A stretch of 56,891 nucleotides of DNA from a virus (Duplodnaviria; Caudoviricetes). A program made the translations under genes and the position numbers. The stretch is taken from positions 1 through 56,891 of IMG/VR virus record IMGVR_UViG_3300024261_000036; one strand, written 5' to 3'. Each line of letters opens with the position of its first letter. Positions within the stretch are counted from its first letter, which is position 1. Under the pieces are notes generated by a model. That model made no database searches and was not told the DNA's origin. It saw only the letters and a program-made list of their open reading frames with translations. Positions 491 to 56,891 of this stretch are shown in pieces.

Positions 491-1390
491 CTAATTATTG
501 AAAAACGGGCTGTCGATTAGATCCTTATTGTTTGGTGTCGACTTCAATTTAAGCCAAACAATCGAATTAGGTTTGTCTATTGGTCTGATGTCGTGGGCGT
601 CTCCATCAACCGTTTGATAATTCCAGAAGCGGGCCGGTCTTTCCCGAATGCCGACAACCGCAACCGATCCGCCGTTTGCCATCACCTCTTTGCAAAGCGC
701 TGCATTGTAACCGCTAAACGAGTGCACTAGGTGGTAATTGCCGGGTGGATTTCGTCCGAAGACTTTTGTATAATCGTAGAAGCGGCGCATGGGTCTTCTC
801 GCCGAAGAAAAGTCAAGACCACAGTCGTTCCCTGAGTACATCTCAAAAAGCCAAGGGGCTACCAATTCGAACGGAATATCTGAGAGTACGTTCAGGCGAA
901 TAAACGTCTTCGGGTCCAGCTTATCGATGGCGTAGACAAGCAACCGCAAGAATGCTTCGGGGTCTGCTAGCAATGCAACTGATCGACAAATCTTAATTTG
1001 TTCGTTGTATTCCAAGACATTATGACCGGATCCGTTTAGACATGCCTTAATACAGTCTTTCGATGCTCCGACGCAGAAATTGACCGGTTCGTTTAGCCAG
1101 TGTCCAGCTGTCTTATGAGGTGAAAGTGCAAGGCCGATTGCTTTTTCCTCTTGTGTCCCGATTTTCTCGAGCTTGAAATTCTGGCTGAGCAATGCGCTAG
1201 CAAGCTTGGTCGAGCTCGAGTATTGCTTAATTGCCGGGAAAAATGGGAAGATCCGTTCGTATGCTTCTTCCAGGCTGATGGCCATCACACGTCTGCGAGT
1301 CGTGATAGGCAAGCGGGATGCTCGAAGGGCCTTTAAAGGCATTCCAATTACCGCCTCGAGATTGCTTAGGATTGATAGTGCTTTAGACAT
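491..1390 (-). CDS. Gp88-family phage protein (Cys-rich, CX6CX3C)
   Basis: Motifs CVGASKDCIKAC, RLNVLSDI, FYDYTK, NYHLVHSFSG and VDGDAHDIRPID are characteristic of the gene product 88 family; start placed at ATG 1390 after a purine-rich leader. Confidence 0.8.
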   Translation of the reverse strand: MSKALSILSNLEAVIGMPLKALRASRLPITTRRRVMAISLEEAYERIFPFFPAIKQYSSSTKLASALLSQNFKLEKIGTQEEKAIGLALSPHKTAGHWLNEPVNFCVGASKDCIKACLNGSGHNVLEYNEQIKICRSVALLADPEAFLRLLVYAIDKLDPKTFIRLNVLSDIPFELVAPWLFEMYSGNDCGLDFSSARRPMRRFYDYTKVFGRNPPGNYHLVHSFSGYNAALCKEVMANGGSVAVVGIRERPARFWNYQTVDGDAHDIRPIDKPNSIVWLKLKSTPNNKDLIDSPFFNN

Positions 1391-1424
1391 GGTGTTTCTC
1401 TCTTTCGTGTGTGTTTTTGTTGGG

Positions 1425-2111: not shown

Positions 2112-2179
2112 ACCGCACCCCCGAAAATTGTCGCCACTGTTGCTGCCGCTAGGATTAGATCTAAGATATTTTGAAACAT
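2108..2179 (-). CDS. Small hydrophobic peptide MFQNILDLILAAATVATIFGGAV (23 aa, one putative TM helix)
   Basis: Not in the ORF track; shares a 14-nt leader with the Gp88 gene and its TGA overlaps the next ATG (ATGA). Confidence 0.6.
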   Translation of the reverse strand: MFQNILDLILAAATVATIFGGAV

Positions 2180-2246
2180 GATTTTTCTCTTTCGTGTGTT
2201 GTGTTTTCTGCCTACGCAGGTCAAAAAGTGATCTGCGTCTTTAACA

Positions 2247-2356: not shown

Positions 2357-3037
2357 CGGTTCTTGAGAACCGCCCATTAATAGGTGTAGCGCGTTTTAGG
2401 CATGCACTACGCGGAACCGTTTAGGCGGTTCCGTCAAGTGCCTGTTATATATGGGGTTTTGCCATATGCGGTACCGCGTACCGCGTAAACCCTTGAAATA
2501 TAGGCGGTTCTGAATACGCAGAATCGCGTACATTTCTCAAAATCCAAAACAAAACCATTTCCGCTTACGCGGTTCCATCCGAAGGAATGGGAACCGCTGA
2601 GCGCCGACCAGTTCCAATAAATCAGATCGCCGTGCGGCAGATTGCCGTGCAGGTTAGGCGGTTCTGAAAAGCAGAACCGAAGCAGTTCCGCGTAACGACC
2701 CCCCACCCCCGCACCTACGCAGAACCGCATAGCGGAACGCCGGCCGGAATGGACGCGGAAGGAACGCGGAACCGCATAAGGGAGCGCCGACCCGGAACCG
2801 GCCCACGCGGAACCCAATAAGCGGAACAGCCATACGCAGATTGCCGTGCAGGCTTCAGCTTACGCAGAACTTTGAGTGAACACACAGATTGCCGTGTACG
2901 CAGAACATAACATATGACTCATATATTATTTTTCATGTCCCTCTTACGCGGAACATGCCCCTACTCCCCATCCCCATTGCCGTCTGGATTGCCGTCCAGG
3001 TCCAGGTTGCCGTCCAGATTCCCGTGTGCGTTGCCGT
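2310..3037. repeat. Dense array of short GAACC/GGTTC, GCRGAAC and TTGCCGT motifs, mostly intergenic and running into the terS 3' end
   Basis: 16 GAACC/GGTTC cores in 2317-2814 in both orientations; 17-bp direct repeat GCAGATTGCCGTGCAGG (2637, 2836); 7 TTGCCGT in 2642-3037. Confidence 0.85.
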
Positions 3038-3575
3038 GTGGTTCTATCTCCGCGTCTATAACTTCCGGCTCATCGTCTGCAGCCGAAAGCGCAGACTTCA
3101 AGCCGTCGGCCCAGGAGACCGCAACCTGCACCGGATTCTCTCCACCTTCGATGGTGGTGACGCTCTTCCTGGCCCAATTTTGATGATAGCTACGCTCCAA
3201 GAACCACGTGGCCGCACGCCAATCTTCTTTGTCTAACGCAGTAGATGCAACAGTCTCGACGAGACGCTGTTCTAGCTGTGCCCGTGCTTGAGAGACCTCC
3301 CTGTAAAGCTTGATGTATATCAGGGCATTAGAGGGCGTTGCTGCGCCATCAGCTAAGCCACTGTATTCTTTACCCTTATCGAGCCATAGGTGCAGCGTAG
3401 TCTCGTCAACATTCACCAGCTTAGCCGCCGTCGTCAAAAACAGCCCCCTCGACACAGCGTCAATGATTTTTCCCAGGGTATCTGGGGTCAGCGTAGACCT
3501 GTGTGCTATCGCCCGCTGTTTTTTGGCCAGGGAACTGGTCACTTGATATATTCCTGTCACTGATTGTTTGTTCAA
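2961..3575 (-). CDS. terS: Putative terminase small subunit (HTH protein)
   Basis: N-terminal HTH (LTTAAKLVNVDETTLHLWL), helical middle, DWRAATWFLER motif typical of TerS-like proteins; true start may be GTG 3542. Confidence 0.65.
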   Translation of the reverse strand: MNKQSVTGIYQVTSSLAKKQRAIAHRSTLTPDTLGKIIDAVSRGLFLTTAAKLVNVDETTLHLWLDKGKEYSGLADGAATPSNALIYIKLYREVSQARAQLEQRLVETVASTALDKEDWRAATWFLERSYHQNWARKSVTTIEGGENPVQVAVSWADGLKSALSAADDEPEVIDAEIEPHGNAHGNLDGNLDLDGNPDGNGDGE

Positions 3576-11086: not shown

Positions 11087-11283
11087 TTGGACTGAATCCA
11101 GACATCACCAAACTGACAGTCACATGTACGCCGAAACTCTTCAGATATGCTCTTTGGCATAACGGTCCCGTCTGTTTGCCTTCGGAGTACAACCCTGCAG
11201 GCTTTTGCGGTATACCATCCCCGGTTTAAGCACTTGGGGCAGTTCGGTGCATACTGTATATGGTTGTCAGTCAATTTTGCCAT
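11083..11283 (-). CDS. Small Zn-binding protein (CxxC...CxC)
   Basis: CPKC..RGW and CDC, as seen near phage DnaC genes; ATGA overlap with dam. Confidence 0.6.
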   Translation of the reverse strand: MAKLTDNHIQYAPNCPKCLNRGWYTAKACRVVLRRQTDGTVMPKSISEEFRRTCDCQFGDVWIQSK

Positions 11284-11492
11284 TCATCTCTCTTTTCACA
11301 TGCGTAAAAATGGTTGTCCCCATTTAAATCCATGGGAAAATCATTATCATCATTATCTACGCACCATACAAGTCGAGCACCACACTTTGAGCAGTTTAGA
11401 TTCTTGCCGGTGAGCCATTCAACGAGTGTAACCATGCGAACATGCATGTCTTCAATGAACTCATCAATCGATACCTGTCTGTCGTTGTCCAT
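11271..11492 (-). CDS. Small Zn-ribbon protein
   Basis: CSKCGARLVW...PMD...HF..C pattern. Confidence 0.6.
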   Translation of the reverse strand: MDNDRQVSIDEFIEDMHVRMVTLVEWLTGKNLNCSKCGARLVWCVDNDDNDFPMDLNGDNHFYACEKRDEWQN

Positions 11493-16316: not shown

Positions 16317-16507
16317 CATACGAAGACTTCCTGCAGGTATCGATATCTTCGGTACCACCGGGAGCATTGACATCTGCAGAGGTGGTAAGTCCGCTGGACG
16401 TCCACCCGGAAAAAGAAAGGAAGGAGAGAACGGCATGCCTAGATTCGATCATAGAGACGTCCAGTTGCGCTATCAGGATGGCGGAGAGACAGAGATTAAG
16501 AACATGA
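16277..16507 (+). CDS. Possible small hypothetical protein
   Basis: Fills the gap between the RuvC-like and AbrB-like genes but overlaps both. Confidence 0.35.
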   Translation: MDEDFKWLKVDKITYEDFLQVSISSVPPGALTSAEVVSPLDVHPEKERKERTACLDSIIETSSCAIRMAERQRLRT

Positions 16508-16794
16508 TAAAAGAGGGATACACCATATATATCCTAAAGGAGGCAATGAGAAAATTAACGATGAAGAGCCCTGTCGAGGGAAGAAGAATGGAAATGATTC
16601 TTCGCAAGCATGGGGTGATAAGCGACACCAGAGGGCCAAGCAAGCCTGACCACGGAGACAGAAGACTGTATTCCGTGCAGAGGGCTGGGACGACGAATTA
16701 CATTCGGCTTCCCGTTGACCTCTTAGGTGTAGACCATAAGCAGCTCGTTGAAGCTGAGTTCAAAGAAGATAGAATAACAATCAAAAACGTATAG
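16435..16794 (+). CDS. Protein with C-terminal AbrB/SpoVT-like DNA-binding domain
   Basis: AGGAG SD; YSVQRAG.TNYIRLPVDLLGV...VE..F.EDRITIK resembles a swapped-hairpin fold. Confidence 0.55.
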   Translation: MPRFDHRDVQLRYQDGGETEIKNMIKEGYTIYILKEAMRKLTMKSPVEGRRMEMILRKHGVISDTRGPSKPDHGDRRLYSVQRAGTTNYIRLPVDLLGVDHKQLVEAEFKEDRITIKNV

Positions 16795-20514: not shown

Positions 20515-20533
20515 CATTCACCAAGGGGAAAGC

Positions 20534-21052
20534 ATGAAAACAAAGGAATGCTCAAAGTGCAACGCGAACAAACCACACGCTGACTTCCACAAAAAGAAGG
20601 CAGCGACGGACGGTCTAAGTTCCTGGTGCAAGCCGTGTAAACATGAGAAGGATACTGCGAGAAGAAGAGAACGTGCGGCAAGAATGACCGACGAAGAAAG
20701 AGAGCTTCACAACAAGAAGAAGAGAGCCCACGGGAAGCTCGACAGAGCGGTTAAGCGTGGGGAAATAGACAAGCCAGAAAAGTGTGAGAAGTGTAACAAG
20801 AAACACGTATCACGAGAGATCCATGGTCATCACCATGATTACGACAAGCCACTTGACGTCGAGTGGATTTGCCGGACGTGTCACCTGAATGAACACGGTG
20901 GCGCACAAACATTAAACTGTAAAATCTGCAATAAGAAATTCACAAGGCAGCGGGGACAGGACAACAAGTTTTGTTCGCATGCCTGTTACTACGTCACATT
21001 ACGCAGTGACTACAAAAAAGGAGGTAAAGCTACGGAGCAAAAACCCAACTGA
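20534..21052 (+). CDS. HNH-type zinc-binding endonuclease
   Basis: CSKC...WCKPC, CEKC...HGHHHDYDKPLDVEWICRTCH. Confidence 0.75.
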   Translation: MKTKECSKCNANKPHADFHKKKAATDGLSSWCKPCKHEKDTARRRERAARMTDEERELHNKKKRAHGKLDRAVKRGEIDKPEKCEKCNKKHVSREIHGHHHDYDKPLDVEWICRTCHLNEHGGAQTLNCKICNKKFTRQRGQDNKFCSHACYYVTLRSDYKKGGKATEQKPN

Positions 21053-44493: not shown

Positions 44494-44983
44494 CGGAGAC
44501 CCCCTCATCAGGCAGGAAGTCTTCCAGCTCACGGTCCAGGACAATCAGGACTGAGTCATCTTCTTCCTCTACAGGAATGCCGATGTTGTCTTCTTCTTTT
44601 TCTTGACGCGCCCGCATCATTGCCTTGAAGTCTTCAAGGGACTTCTTCCCGGACTGTTTCTCAGCGAACCGAGACTGAACGTATGCATTGCTTTCGACAG
44701 ACTCGGTCTTCCGAAAGTTCCTGGGCAGCAAATCTCTGGGCTTAATCTTCTTCTTCACCCAACAGTTCATGAGGTTGGCGCACGTCCATGCCAGGAGTTC
44801 CATATCTCTCTTTGATTTTTCTTCGTGCGCTTCGACCATCACCCTGAACTCCTTCAACGTCAAGCCGGTCCCTATTTGGTCCGGCAAGCCCCAAAATTGC
44901 TCAGGATGAAGACCGATTTCGCAAGCTATCTTTACAAGCTCGTCGAAGTCGAATCGCTGGTGTCCTGGCCTGGGACGAAAGGG
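44486..44983 (-). CDS. Tail assembly chaperone C-terminal (T) frame, reached by -1 frameshift
   Basis: -1 frame reads FDFDELVKIACEIGLHPEQFWGLP...TLKEF, a typical gpT pattern, without its own strong start. Confidence 0.8.
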   Translation of the reverse strand, partial: PFRPRPGHQRFDFDELVKIACEIGLHPEQFWGLPDQIGTGLTLKEFRVMVEAHEEKSKRDMELLAWTCANLMNCWVKKKIKPRDLLPRNFRKTESVESNAYVQSRFAEKQSGKKSLEDFKAMMRARQEKEEDNIGIPVEEEDDSVLIVLDRELEDFLPDEGVSDD

Positions 44984-53174: not shown

Positions 53175-54569
53175 CTACACAAAGAAAAACTCCTGCACGC
53201 CCTCGTCAGCCAGTGCCATGACCACGGCGTCTGCCTCATCTGGCGACTTAACCCCTCGTTTCTTCATATCTTCTTTCGATTCTATCTGGAGCAGCCCCCT
53301 TGAGTTTATCTTGAAGCGGATGGCCGTCAACTGCGCCAGCAGGGATTGTGAGCTGGGCATAAATACCCGGTAGTCGCCGTTGGGATCTAACTTCTTCCTC
53401 GCCGTGAAGTACCATTCAGCCCTCTTGTTAAGGTAACGCTCGTTCTCCGTGGCCCGCATTCCACCCCGCATTTCCACCACCACGTTCCCGAGTTGCTCCC
53501 TTAGCCGGTCGAACACCCCGGCTCCAAGTCCGTCTGCATCTACCCGTATTTCGTCCACATTCTGGAACGCCCCCTTGTCATTGAATGCCTTGATGATATG
53601 CCCCACTGTCTCCATAGTGTCTGCCTTTGGGGCGCGGACCACCTCCGTTATGCCGTCTTCACTTGCGAACGCGAACACCGTATGATCGGCTCCGAATCGG
53701 GCCACATCAACAGCCATAACCAGTCGCTTCTTGCTTCCCACCTTATTATTCTCGTAGCGGGACATCGCAGCCTCAGCCCAGGATAGCGGCACCACTACTG
53801 AATCCGCAGCCTCTGGGAAGTTGCCCATCACACGGCTCTGCCACATTGGGGTGCTTTCGTCCCACTCAGCCTTGCGCTCATCCACCCATTCCTTGGTGCA
53901 TAATCCAGGGATAAGAGACTTGCCAGCCTTGACATTGGGAACGTCATACGCGCTGATGTGGAACTTCGCGATGTTCTCACTATCTGTCTTAAACAGGTTG
54001 TAGAATGGGCCAGACGTTTCGGTGGGGTTGCCAATGCAGAGCAGCCGGTCGTGCTCACCTACGATAACACCCCGTGCCGCGTCCCAGATATCAGGCGCAA
54101 TGCCGGGTGCCTCATCGAAGATGGCGAGTATTCCCCCAGGGCTATGCCAACCTTGGAAGCTCGTGGGGTCATCCGTACTAAAACCCACGCATAACCATTC
54201 ATCGTCCACCACCAGCCGGGGCGCTTTTGGCAACAGCTCACCACCCAGCCCAGGTCCTCCGACTATCTGCTCCGCCCTCTTGTGGGACTTGCGTATCTCC
54301 TTCCATAGAAGGTCCGTAACCTGCCGACCCGTTGGTGCCGTCGTTATAACGGTGGAGAATGGTCTCGTATAAAGCCACCAAAGTGCGAGCTGGGCCGCAA
54401 GGAATGTCTTTCCGCTTCCATGACAACTGCGGACGGCTACGATGCGGTGGTCGTTTAGGCCGTTTGCGATTTGGATCTGCTTTTCCCAGAGCTTTGCGCC
54501 GAGGACGTGCTCGATAAAAAGCTCTGGTCTTTCCTGTAGTTCTACTACTTGCTTCCTGCTTAGATTCAT
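53175..54569 (-). CDS. terL: Terminase large subunit
   Basis: Walker A SCHGSGKT, TAPT..Q, FDEA, IGNP, VDVARFGAD, KSPDEADA. Confidence 0.95.
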   Translation of the reverse strand: MNLSRKQVVELQERPELFIEHVLGAKLWEKQIQIANGLNDHRIVAVRSCHGSGKTFLAAQLALWWLYTRPFSTVITTAPTGRQVTDLLWKEIRKSHKRAEQIVGGPGLGGELLPKAPRLVVDDEWLCVGFSTDDPTSFQGWHSPGGILAIFDEAPGIAPDIWDAARGVIVGEHDRLLCIGNPTETSGPFYNLFKTDSENIAKFHISAYDVPNVKAGKSLIPGLCTKEWVDERKAEWDESTPMWQSRVMGNFPEAADSVVVPLSWAEAAMSRYENNKVGSKKRLVMAVDVARFGADHTVFAFASEDGITEVVRAPKADTMETVGHIIKAFNDKGAFQNVDEIRVDADGLGAGVFDRLREQLGNVVVEMRGGMRATENERYLNKRAEWYFTARKKLDPNGDYRVFMPSSQSLLAQLTAIRFKINSRGLLQIESKEDMKKRGVKSPDEADAVVMALADEGVQEFFFV

Positions 54570-54625
54570 TCCTAAATTCCCCTGTCTTGATTTATGGACT
54601 GTTATAACTGTATAAGAACATATAT

Positions 54626-54868
54626 ATGCCATACGACAACAATGGTAAATGCATACACCTCTATAAACAAATGGGGCGTCATGATGATGGGAAAATATTC
54701 CGCTGCGAACACTGCGGAGTAGCGGTGAAAGCGAAGGAGAATAAGCCTATGTTTGACAGTGACATGCGGCTGCTGCGTGATGACGAGGCGATGGGCAATG
54801 ACGAAGAAAAAACCAGCATCGGAATGGGTGATAAAAAAGCACATCCCGGAGATCCTGAGGCTATATGA
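54626..54868 (+). CDS. Possible small Cys/His protein
   Basis: CIH...CEHC; overlaps the next ORF by 71 nt. Confidence 0.45.
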   Translation: MPYDNNGKCIHLYKQMGRHDDGKIFRCEHCGVAVKAKENKPMFDSDMRLLRDDEAMGNDEEKTSIGMGDKKAHPGDPEAI

Positions 54869-55037
54869 GGAGAAAAAGGGCATATGCTCTATTGCTGTTC
54901 GCCTTGGCATTTCAGCTCGCCTGGTACGTTTCGTTCTTGACGGTCGTCCAGACCCAATTACAGGGGAGATTATAGATTATCATGGCTCTTGCGGGGCTTG
55001 CGACACTTTTTCTGTGGCAATGCGGCGTCATGATTGA
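54798..55037 (+). CDS. Small HTH DNA-binding protein
   Basis: EILRLYEEKKGICSIAVRLGISARLVRFVL is an HTH pattern. Confidence 0.6.
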   Translation: MTKKKPASEWVIKKHIPEILRLYEEKKGICSIAVRLGISARLVRFVLDGRPDPITGEIIDYHGSCGACDTFSVAMRRHD

Positions 55038-55100
55038 TTTAATGGGGTGTATATTCGAAGTATCGTCGGGTGCGACCCGATAGCCAAAAGGAGACGGCTT

Positions 55101-55382
55101 GTGACACCATGGATATCTTTAGGAATAAGTAGCTGCGCAAGCCTGGTGTTTATCGGAATAGCCTGGGGAACGCTGAGGTCCGAGGTCAAGCAAAACGCAC
55201 TGCAACTGAAAGACACGACAGAAAGCATGAAAGAACAGATAGATGAAATCAAGCGCACCAAGACCTCCAACGAGAGGATGAACGCATTTGAAGACCGCAT
55301 CGACCGCTTCGAAGAAAGTCTCAATGAGAAGATTGATGAAATCAAAGAGTCTCTTAAAGATCTGCAGCGCAGGGGTTCCTGA
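55101..55382 (+). CDS. N-terminal TM plus coiled-coil protein (holin-like or spanin-like)
   Basis: AGGAG SD before GTG 55101; WISLGISSCASLVFIGIAW followed by heptad repeats. Confidence 0.65.
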   Translation: MTPWISLGISSCASLVFIGIAWGTLRSEVKQNALQLKDTTESMKEQIDEIKRTKTSNERMNAFEDRIDRFEESLNEKIDEIKESLKDLQRRGS

Positions 55383-55421
55383 CACATTGTAAAGAAAATA
55401 GTGCGACATAAGTACAAAAAG

Positions 55422-55450
55422 TTGCAAATGATGGAAGTTGCATATATTGT
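55422..55450 (+). promoter_or_regulatory. Putative sigma70 promoter
   Basis: TTGCAA, 17 nt, TATTGT with A-rich upstream sequence. Confidence 0.6.
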
Positions 55451-55456
55451 AAAAGC

Positions 55457-55549
55457 AGTGGAGCATGTTTATTGTGGGTGACACTCGTTTTCATGCCTCT
55501 CTCTTTTCTGTGTTTGGCCCCACCTGAGTTAATCGGGTGGGGTTTTTTT
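55457..55549 (+). ncRNA. Candidate ~90-nt small RNA
   Basis: Bounded by a promoter and an intrinsic terminator; no credible plus-strand ORF; carries a pyrimidine-rich anti-start/anti-RBS tract. Confidence 0.5.
55518..55549 (+). terminator. Rho-independent terminator
   Basis: CCCCACCTGA-gttaa-TCGGGTGGGG 10-bp stem (one G-U pair) followed by T7. Confidence 0.9.
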
Positions 55550-55645
55550 ATTGCGGTGTTCTTGCTCCAGGTTTACGGTGTGCGCTCGCGCCCCTGGTCC
55601 GCATTAACTTAGGAGTGGGTTCTAGATTTACGCGGGCCATGGGCA

Positions 55646-56812
55646 TCAAGCATCTAGCTGCCCGATGCATCCTTTTTCCTCATCTATGATATAAGCCGAC
55701 AGCACACGCTTGCTGCCCACAAACCCCTTACGACTGTGCCAGCGGTCTGTCCCGGATAGACTCCCCATCTGGTACATCATCACACCTTTGTGTTCCTTGA
55801 CCTGCTGGTGGTGCAAATGCCCCGAGAAGACCATCCGGTGTTCTGCCTCACCCCATTCTTGCGCAGCCTCATACGCCATGATGCCTGGGATATCCGTACT
55901 CCTGGCGCTGTCACCATGGGTCACGCAAATCAGGCTATTGCCATAAGTCACGTACTGCCGCTCCGCAGGAGTCGTGGTTGTGGTCACGCCTTCCGTATCC
56001 TTATACATATGCGTCAGCAGAGTCATCAGCCCCAGACTGGATGTCCGGTCATGGTTACCCGGCATGAATATCAAGTTGATGCTAGGGCAAAAAGACCGCA
56101 GCATCTCCACGAAATCCACAAAGAGCTGGCAGCCTTCAGAGAAAATCTGCGCATAGCTGCCATCCGTATCCTGTGGCGTACCCGCAGTTGTGGTCCCGCC
56201 ATCCGTATCAATGTGGAACCAGTCTGAACCAACCCCAACATACATCACATCCGGCTGACCATACTTGGCAACCAAACTCAGCAGGTCATCCGTCCGCTGC
56301 ATCAGCAGCGTTCTTGCCTCATCCCGCGAATAGCCCGTGTTCGTCTCAACCGACCACCCGTATTTCCCATAATGAAAATCAGTCGGCGTACAGAAAACCG
56401 CAAATGGATCTTGGTCCTTCTTCAGCTTCAGCTTCGGGAGCCTGGGCGGTGCCTCTATCTGGATATCCTGTATCGGCAGCCGGTCACCCTCAATCGCACG
56501 GATATGCCTATATATCCAGCCCTCGATTATACGGGGCCGTCGCTTATCCGTCTTCAACACATAAACATCGCGGGGAGCATCATAGTAACCCTTGTCAGCC
56601 TTGTGCGCCTCGTTCCGCTCATCGTCTTCATGCAGAGCCTCGATGTCATCAAGGACAGACTCCCTCGCATTGTCATCTACATAGTACAGATAAGCCCCAT
56701 ACAAAGTGTCCCACTTGCGCTCAACCGTGCCCCTGCGCCCACGTTTGCGTAATGCCTCCGGGGAAGATATCCCCAAAAGACGCGAGGCCTCCGGTGCCTT
56801 GTGCCATGCCAT
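55646..56812 (-). CDS. Calcineurin-like metallophosphoesterase with N-terminal HTH-like segment
   Basis: TDFHYGK, GSDWFH, PGNHD, THGD, SGHLHH. Confidence 0.88.
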   Translation of the reverse strand: MAWHKAPEASRLLGISSPEALRKRGRRGTVERKWDTLYGAYLYYVDDNARESVLDDIEALHEDDERNEAHKADKGYYDAPRDVYVLKTDKRRPRIIEGWIYRHIRAIEGDRLPIQDIQIEAPPRLPKLKLKKDQDPFAVFCTPTDFHYGKYGWSVETNTGYSRDEARTLLMQRTDDLLSLVAKYGQPDVMYVGVGSDWFHIDTDGGTTTAGTPQDTDGSYAQIFSEGCQLFVDFVEMLRSFCPSINLIFMPGNHDRTSSLGLMTLLTHMYKDTEGVTTTTTPAERQYVTYGNSLICVTHGDSARSTDIPGIMAYEAAQEWGEAEHRMVFSGHLHHQQVKEHKGVMMYQMGSLSGTDRWHSRKGFVGSKRVLSAYIIDEEKGCIGQLDA

Positions 56813-56891
56813 ATCATGTATCCTCTGGGTTAATCACCGCAGACTCAATGACGTTCAAACATTGGGCAGGCGTGCGCTCCGGGAAAGACAG
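56766..56891. repeat. Terminal overlap, copy 2 (identical to 23..148)
   Basis: Direct comparison of the two contig ends. Confidence 0.95.

Follow-up and report, generated by a model that had tools for sequence, protein, structure and literature searches.

A conserved CU-rich tract and a strong intrinsic terminator at a convergent gene junction of a marine siphophage: a possible c4-like antisense RNA

The stretch of DNA that we analysed (the window) comprises 56,891 bases and is an entire viral record of the IMG/VR type, whose two ends overlap (11-148 versus 56754-56891, 98.6% identity over 138 nt). This overlap suggests that the record, which is listed as 'linear, 73% complete', is probably an effectively complete, circularly assembled genome; once the record ends are joined, the start of the exonuclease gene (56812) lies directly after the Gp88 module. 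The phage is a siphophage of ~57 kb in which a long minus-strand block carries the structural genes and a plus-strand block carries the replication and recombination genes, and the runs that hold it are seawater and marine metagenomes. It has no close cultured relative: the region 55000-55700 had no nucleotide match in the phage collection, where all matches of the large terminase were below 60% identity. The element under study (55422-55549) lies inside a 263-nt gap (55383-55645) between a plus-strand cassette and a convergent gene, in the following setting:

minus strand: structural genes encoding the tape measure protein (2066 aa), the major head protein, the protease and the portal
2961-3575, minus strand: small terminase
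53175-54632, minus strand: large terminase
54626-54868, plus strand: zinc-ribbon protein, cassette gene 1 of 3
about 54798-55037, plus strand: HTH-like protein, cassette gene 2 of 3
55047-55382 (probable start 55101), plus strand: transmembrane plus coiled-coil protein, last cassette gene, conserved in the related loci L001 and L005, with weak PHROG and Pfam matches
55646-56812, minus strand: metallophosphoesterase/exonuclease gene, convergent with the cassette

The plus strand is the coding strand at the cassette, because the cassette proteins are conserved in relatives of this phage. In distant relatives, whose exonucleases are 42-45% identical, small zinc-ribbon genes follow the exonuclease gene in the same direction, and in at least one locus of the L021/L040 type a terminase-like ORF comes after the zinc-ribbon genes that trail the exonuclease; this co-directional order suggests that the plus-strand cassette of the window is probably an inverted segment. 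The original prediction had placed the targets of the element in an 'early leftward operon', a label for which we found no support; the exonuclease gene of the distant relatives is co-directional with and just upstream of the large terminase gene (in L021/L040, the terminase-like ORF). A role of the RNA in blocking a superinfecting phage was likewise not supported. None of the ORFs scanned could be recognised as encoding an integrase or a repressor, and no informative family or solved structure was found for Gp88, for the 228-aa protein encoded near it or for the cassette proteins.

Several observations concern the terminase genes. The large terminase ORF probably begins at an internal methionine (MNLSRKQ..., about 54569), as it does in L005, which would put the divergent starts of terminase and cassette only ~56 nt apart (54569-54632). 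The small terminase gene is located ~5 kb from that of the large terminase in the window. In the L001 type, a small terminase homologue (~30% identity) is found at 2782-3312 (minus strand in that locus), within the inverted plus-strand cassette and on the strand opposite to the large terminase.

Within the gap, the following features could be distinguished:

55417-55450, plus strand: promoter-like island, consisting of AAAAG, a -35 hexamer TTGCAA (55422-55427), a 17-nt spacer and a -10 hexamer TATTGT (55445-55450)
55457-55491, plus strand: variable 5' part of the putative RNA, which would start at about 55457; poorly conserved, with an 8-nt indel relative to L005 and L029
55492-55515, plus strand: CATG plus CU-rich tract, the putative seed (CATGCCTCTCTCTTTTCTGTGTTT); conserved, with 55500-55515 single-stranded in the minimum free energy fold
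55516-55549, plus strand: intrinsic terminator with a 12-bp stem (7 G-C), a 5-nt GTTAA loop and T7 at 55543-55549
55354-55494, minus strand: 46-aa ORF, rejected as a gene since in L005, L006 and L029 the same ATG is directly followed by TAA

The strong intrinsic terminator that had been predicted here was borne out. The hairpin at 55516-55549 is the strongest intrinsic-terminator match in the whole 56.9-kb window, and the fold of 55455-55552 reached -33.4 kcal/mol (z = -3.8). Both marks of such a terminator were found, namely a G+C-rich stem-loop with a U-tract and a position downstream of a co-directional transcription unit: the hairpin begins 134 nt past the stop of the conserved gene 55047-55382, so that the mRNA of this last cassette gene would end at the same terminator. 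It is one-directional, because the minus strand has no U-tract after the hairpin. The stem is identical in L005, L006 and L029, in which the changes are confined to the loop, and searches of viral_contigs with the hairpin pattern and with a 25-mer (seed plus stem) each returned only the two L005-type contigs.

The promoter that had been described as good fared less well. TTGCAA-N17-TATTGT agrees with the sigma-70 consensus at 8 of 12 positions, which is below the scan threshold, and a promoter scan of 54000-56891 returned no promoter-like site. In this genome, one match of this quality (8/12) is found for about every 658 nt of single strand. Sigma-70-like sites are not enriched anywhere in it, and no promoter motif common to other sites in the phage was found. 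Relative to L005 and L029 the island is conserved, with 11 of 12 hexamer positions (the -10 being TATTAT there) and 12 of 17 spacer positions identical, while the DNA flanking it on both sides is poorly conserved; the sole argument for a putative promoter at this place is this conservation in the single further lineage carrying the element. The 5' part that would follow it is predicted to form a weak stem through CATG palindromes.

It had also been proposed that the RNA is cis-antisense to the 46-aa ORF on the minus strand, as in type I toxin-antitoxin loci. The ORF does exist at 55354-55494, with a leader resembling a Shine-Dalgarno (SD) sequence and antisense to the putative RNA, as a toxin opposed by a plus-strand antitoxin would require, but it has no Pfam or PHROG match, and in L005, L006 and L029 the next ORF past the ATG-TAA lies in a different frame and encodes an unrelated 50-aa peptide. 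As the ORF is conserved neither in frame nor in length nor in sequence, the toxin-antitoxin reading fails, and we give it almost no credence. A plus-strand peptide gene was also rejected, since the ORFs of the window and of L005 are in different frames and stop at different places, lack an SD sequence throughout, and run through the terminator. No conserved ORF is therefore present on either strand of the element, and the absence of one behind the minus-strand 'leader plus ATG' is as expected if the plus-strand RNA were an antisense image of a start region.

The sequence similarities on which the original prediction was built were confirmed. The window contains CATG-CCTC-TCTCTTT-TC-TGTGTT at 55492-55515, CATG-ATTTT-TCTCTTT-CG-TGTGTT at 2177-2200, TCTCTCTTT-CG-TGTGT at 1397-1412 and GCATGAAAAC at 20532-20541. 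The similarity of the tract to two gene leaders exceeds chance: TCTCTTTNNTGTGT occurs three times in the window against 0.01 expected, and AACACACGAAAGAGAGA with up to 3 mismatches has three copies, all on the minus strand, against 0.13 expected, although both patterns were chosen after the fact. Read on the minus strand, the 17-nt motif AACACAnnAAAGAGAGA is found at 1397-1413, 2184-2200 and 55498-55514, and each copy is followed within 3-6 nt by an ATG, at 1390 (the Gp88 start, fixed by alignment with relatives), 2179 (a 23-aa peptide, the stop of which overlaps with the 228-aa gene at its start) and 55494. A promoter motif for a phage polymerase was rejected, because none of 36 large ORFs matched a single-subunit RNA polymerase and the motif has only 3 copies. 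No family reached its gathering score in an Rfam search of the element; membership in RF02837 (anti-hemB), RF02399 (NsiR1) or RF02278 (Betaproteobacteria toxic sRNA) was rejected, as these weak matches, which extend over the hairpin of the terminator and some of the CU-rich tract, scored 18-19 bits (E 0.22-1.5) against gathering scores of 39-50.

Outside the phage and its relatives, a 21-mer search of genome_contigs returned no match, and an 18-mer search with the seed returned two unrelated contigs, L058, where the match falls inside coding sequence, and the viral contig L059, where the exact 18-mer (as reverse complement) is an RBS leader 5 nt before a terminase-like ORF. The latter suggests that the motif may be just a common flavour of purine-rich RBS leader. 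Repeats of other kinds accompany the Gp88 module. Just past the Gp88 stop, a perfect C10-G10 palindrome (444-463, and 470-490) preceded by four GCAACG repeats separates the module from a small ORF and the exonuclease gene, and could be a strong minus-strand hairpin or terminator, or an assembly oddity. Upstream of the 23-aa peptide leader, CCCGGTTCAGCTGCGT is directly repeated two and a half times (2314-2355), followed by a GGCGGTTCTTGAGAACCGCC hairpin (2356-2375); repeated AGATC(T/C)GCAT boxes are also present in 2290-2375. Lying as they do between the genes for the small terminase and the Gp88 module, these repeats may serve as an operator, an origin or a packaging signal. Where two putative tail chaperone ORFs are situated, upstream of the tape measure gene, the string GAAAAAATCAAAGAGAGA (44800-44825, minus strand) contains one of the 5 genomic copies of AAAGAGAGA and is by its appearance a possible -1 frameshift site.

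Exonuclease-based searches returned 24 viral and 17 metagenome loci, among which nine distinct contigs were close enough for comparison and spanned the site of the element. The element was present in three of these (L005, L006 and L029), which form one lineage with exonucleases 77-79% identical to that of the window. In the other six (L001, L002, which is the same contig as L028, L003, L004, L017 and L031) the region 55383-55539 was absent and in its place were ~1.3 kb with three more cassette genes, after which came a pyrimidine-rich 3'UTR of unrelated sequence and another terminator; the T-run at 55540 is where homology to the window resumed. Relative to the L005 lineage, 55497-55551 was identical at 52 of 55 positions, against 74% over the whole alignment of 5074 columns, and tied for second among all its 55-nt windows, the other top windows falling in terminase and exonuclease coding sequence. 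The 30-nt perfect run relative to L005 at 55498-55527 was the second longest in that alignment; across 55498-55551, L005 and L029 differed from the window at two loop positions only, while the non-coding DNA next to the element was ~50% identical, with indels. A conserved, accessible seed with a variable remainder was found in this way, over two lineages only. Promoter-like hexamers kept at 11/12 positions, a body that varies on its 5' side, and a seed and terminator stem without change together fit the usual pattern of a small RNA, as does the compact predicted unit in which a promoter-like island and a variable 5' part lead to a single-stranded CU-rich tract and then to the strong terminator. 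High identity over two lineages could also reflect recent exchange in a mosaic region instead of selection. The DNA runs X2 and X3 were identical to the window across the element, with no variants, and the contigs of the metatranscriptome runs X23 and X24 held parts of the phage outside 55290-55749.

The window is indeed a mosaic. A comparison of 55540-56891 with 54000-55349 and 53-2433 showed that the exonuclease gene and 55540-55645 are ~92% identical in nucleotides to the L001 type, while the cassette, the element and the Gp88 module are closest to the L005 type (~68-78%), with one recombination breakpoint inside the T-run of the terminator (55540). The element and the Gp88 module are both present in the window and in the L005 type, and neither was found in the complete 57-kb L004 genome (G001), which contains no copy of the motif; homologues of Gp88, the 228-aa protein and the 23-aa peptide were absent from the 12.3 kb of G001 that flank its exonuclease gene (first 6 kb plus last 6.3 kb). 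With two related lineages set against one, this co-occurrence is weak evidence; it may be one vertical event, and searches with the cassette HTH protein and with Gp88 returned no new close lineage. Gene insertions are visible in the relatives. In the L005 lineage, the coiled-coil gene is separated from the element by an additional, inserted gene of 178 aa (L005 4007-4543, minus strand in that locus), after which the last codons of the coiled-coil gene (GGTTCCTGA) remain as a remnant. In the metagenome relative L032, the Gp88 leader (CAAACACGAAAGAGAGA...ATG) is duplicated along with an inserted small gene at about 1467-1706, which suggests that this leader may act as a recombination junction for gene cassettes.

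We calculated duplex energies with the 25-nt conserved tract as seed and ranked 65 start regions of the phage, from a semi-automatic gene list in which the Gp88 start was set by hand. The start regions of interest were:

16405-16437, plus strand: RBS of gene 16435-16794, with a generic GGAAGGAGAGA SD sequence; -26.1 kcal/mol, rank 1 of 65
11281-11297, minus strand: RBS of a small zinc-finger gene, ATG at 11283; -23.6 kcal/mol, reached by 0.2% of shuffles, rank 2
8246: start region of the gene at this position; -21.9 kcal/mol, rank 3
1388-1416, minus strand: Gp88 leader and start codon, ATG at 1390; -21.1 kcal/mol, 0.2% of shuffles, rank 5
2177-2200, minus strand: leader of the 23-aa peptide, ATG at 2179; -17.9 kcal/mol, 2.8% of shuffles, rank 13
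HNH gene start, ATG at 20534; -15.9 kcal/mol, 24% of shuffles, rank 23

The predicted pairing with the leaders of both Gp88 and the 23-aa peptide gained support from these energies for the former. The predicted Gp88 duplex comprises 21 bp in blocks of 7, 10 and 4 and spans the SD-like AAAGAGAGA and the AUG, and its complementarity is not random, as shuffled seeds averaged -12.2 +/- 2.7 kcal/mol with this leader and 0.2% of 500 dinucleotide shuffles reached -21.1. It is kept in the relative: the seed of L005 with its own Gp88 leader gave -22.4 kcal/mol (1.2% of shuffles), the three substitutions between the Gp88 leaders of the window and L005 all lie outside the 7-bp and 10-bp paired blocks, and the paired blocks are unchanged in L005 and L032. 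In contrast, the pairing with the 23-aa leader was weaker, fell to -14.8 kcal/mol (12% of shuffles) with the seed and leader of L005, and involves an ACACA part that is kept in neither L005 nor L032. Complementarity to the HNH gene start, which had been put forward as a third target, is at chance level, since the 10-nt match at 20532-20541 has a blastn-short E of 2.1 and its energy is reached by nearly a quarter of the shuffles. None of these three targets came out on top of the ranking (fifth, thirteenth and twenty-third), and the second-ranked zinc-finger RBS, with an 11-nt perfect complement (GAAAAGAGAGA), is a candidate target that was absent from the original prediction.

Over all start regions, 8 of 65 reached -20 kcal/mol or lower, compared with 4.1 +/- 1.9 when the seed was shuffled (a count of 8 was reached in 4.3% of 300 shuffles), and the best start-region energy was not unusual, being equalled by 16% of shuffles. 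Among duplex sites of the whole genome, Gp88 came in about 16th place when self sites were set apart, and the leader of the 23-aa peptide fell outside the top 30 listed (29 non-self); a genome-wide scan with a 37-nt query was set aside, as its duplexes were long and implausible. That any CU-rich RNA pairs with SD sequences is a point against the small-RNA reading, and by these predictions the tract acts like an anti-RBS sequence of a general kind, for which Gp88 is the one specific partner with good support. For the pyrimidine tract that precedes the terminator in G001, of the L001 type, G001 itself offered no second-site match longer than 12 nt, and start regions were not enriched (3 versus 4.0 +/- 1.9), so it was rejected as a functional analogue of the window's tract, and a pyrimidine tract before a terminator is not in itself evidence of a small RNA.

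We propose, with a probability of roughly 45%, that the element specifies an RNA of ~95 nt, which either has a promoter of its own or is the 3'UTR of the cassette, and which in the manner of c4 would mask ribosome-binding sites of the AAAGAGAGA type in genes of the same phage, above all in Gp88. In this model the plus strand would yield a short non-coding RNA (about 55457 to 55549) ending at the genome's strongest intrinsic terminator, which would begin at its own weak sigma-70-like promoter or be the 3'UTR end of the three-gene cassette mRNA. Its function would reside in the tract CAUG-CCUCUCUCUUUUCUGUGUUU immediately before the terminator, which is strictly conserved and predicted to be single-stranded. 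This antisense image of an RBS leader would pair in trans with AAAGAGAGA-type leaders, chiefly that of Gp88, and by covering the SD region and the AUG would block the initiation of translation, as for the c4 RNA of P1 and P7. The tract may have originated as a relic RBS leader that was left beside the exonuclease gene when the cassette was inverted and is now transcribed in antisense. The analysis shows the terminator, the pattern of conservation, complementarity beyond chance and the lack of a conserved ORF on both strands; from these we infer that the promoter would fire, that the RNA would accumulate and pair in vivo, and which genes it would control.

The main alternative, which we consider quite possible although short of an even chance, is that 55516-55549 is a plain operon terminator that ends transcription of the cassette where it converges with the exonuclease gene. 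The 134-nt 3'UTR before it would then do nothing in trans. The CU-rich tract would be a copy of the module's RBS leader, left as a relic or at a recombination junction, or else a pyrimidine tract of the generic kind, and the promoter-like hexamers would be a product of chance. The position of the hairpin behind a conserved co-directional gene at a convergent junction is what such a terminator would have, the match to a promoter is at chance level, and the claimed targets are not top-ranked. Moreover, the L001 type has a different terminator at the same place, directly after its last gene, also preceded by a pyrimidine-rich tract and without a promoter-like island, and the region is a hot spot of mosaicism, as seen in the breakpoint in the T-run at 55540, the 178-aa insert of L005 and the leader duplication of L032. 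However, a neutral relic should not remain identical at 18 of 18 positions where the background is 74% and the neighbouring non-coding DNA ~50%, chance does not explain a conserved island at the promoter-like hexamers, and the window's tract is unlike a generic pyrimidine tract, of which that of G001, lacking second-site matches above 12 nt and enrichment, is an example.

The minus strand might instead be the functional one, with AACACAnnAAAGAGAGA plus ATG serving as a translation-initiation leader or as the RNA site of a phage translational regulator, used three times in leftward genes and, in its third copy, carried on transcripts that read through from the exonuclease gene. All 3 copies have the same orientation with an ATG 3-6 nt or less away, the same 18-mer is an RBS leader in the unrelated L059, the leader was duplicated with an inserted gene in L032, and transcripts of the exonuclease gene would probably read through the hairpin, which is no terminator on the minus strand. 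Nevertheless, we regard this as unlikely, as no conserved ORF follows the third copy (46 aa in the window; in L005, L006 and L029 ATG-TAA, then a 50-aa frame of unrelated sequence) and no candidate RNA-binding regulator was found in the phage proteins scanned. The same read-through transcript could be the only target of a plus-strand RNA, which by interference from convergent transcription or by RNase III cleavage would insulate the cassette and the late genes from leftward transcription. The convergent layout and the lack of a minus-strand terminator between the exonuclease stop (55646) and the element would suit such a cis-antisense RNA, and cis-antisense RNAs such as OOP and sar are the commonest known phage regulatory RNAs (PMC12197685). 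This reading leaves unexplained why the 18-nt tract alone, and not the whole overlap, is invariant, and why the tract matches two distant leaders, and we consider it distinctly improbable.

The c4 RNA to which the model appeals matures by processing from the operon that also contains its target, and provides immunity in a temperate phage. According to PMC12197685, it is a 77-nt trans-acting antisense RNA of P1 and P7 that targets the region around the RBS of ant mRNA, and the putative RNA would resemble it in being short and phage-encoded, with short complementary blocks predicted around the RBS of one of the phage's own mRNAs and with its target elsewhere in the genome. Unlike c4, it has no sequence or Rfam similarity to c4 or to any curated RNA family, the phage has no integrase or repressor recognised among the scanned ORFs, and the putative RNA is convergent with its putative target operon. 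The same source describes lambda OOP, P22 sar and sas, and BTP1 STnc6030 as cis-antisense phage RNAs that repress phage genes by base pairing, and like these the putative RNA would be a small phage RNA ending at an intrinsic terminator (PMC12197685). Those RNAs overlap their targets with full complementarity, whereas the best candidate targets here are at least 2.6 kb away and would pair through blocks of 7, 10 and 4 bp. One general class of bacterial small RNAs derived from 3'UTRs shares the terminator of an mRNA, with the seed just upstream of it. The element may resemble them in its conserved seed directly 5' of a strong hairpin and long U-tail common to the upstream mRNA, with an internal promoter possible.

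A bolder form of the proposal, which we hold only tentatively and as rather doubtful, is that a siphophage with no recognised lysogeny genes keeps a c4-like RNA encoded by a copy of its Gp88 module's RBS leader that is transcribed in antisense. Such an RNA would shut off this module, and perhaps other AAAGAGAGA-type starts, upon expression of the convergent cassette, and regulator and module would be inherited together while the exonuclease gene between them is swapped by recombination. To our knowledge, very few phage RNAs act in trans on the RBS of their own phage, the c4 RNA of P1 and P7 being the textbook case, and in the literature consulted we know of no such RNA from uncultured marine phages. 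If the RNA is not real, the locus is simply the terminator of an operon, of the ordinary kind, at a hot spot of recombination. If the proposal is true, RNA switches of this sort would exist outside temperate coliphages, in a compact design of a 25-nt seed and a 31-nt leader, and one route by which they originate, the antisense transcription of a leftover RBS leader, would be shown.
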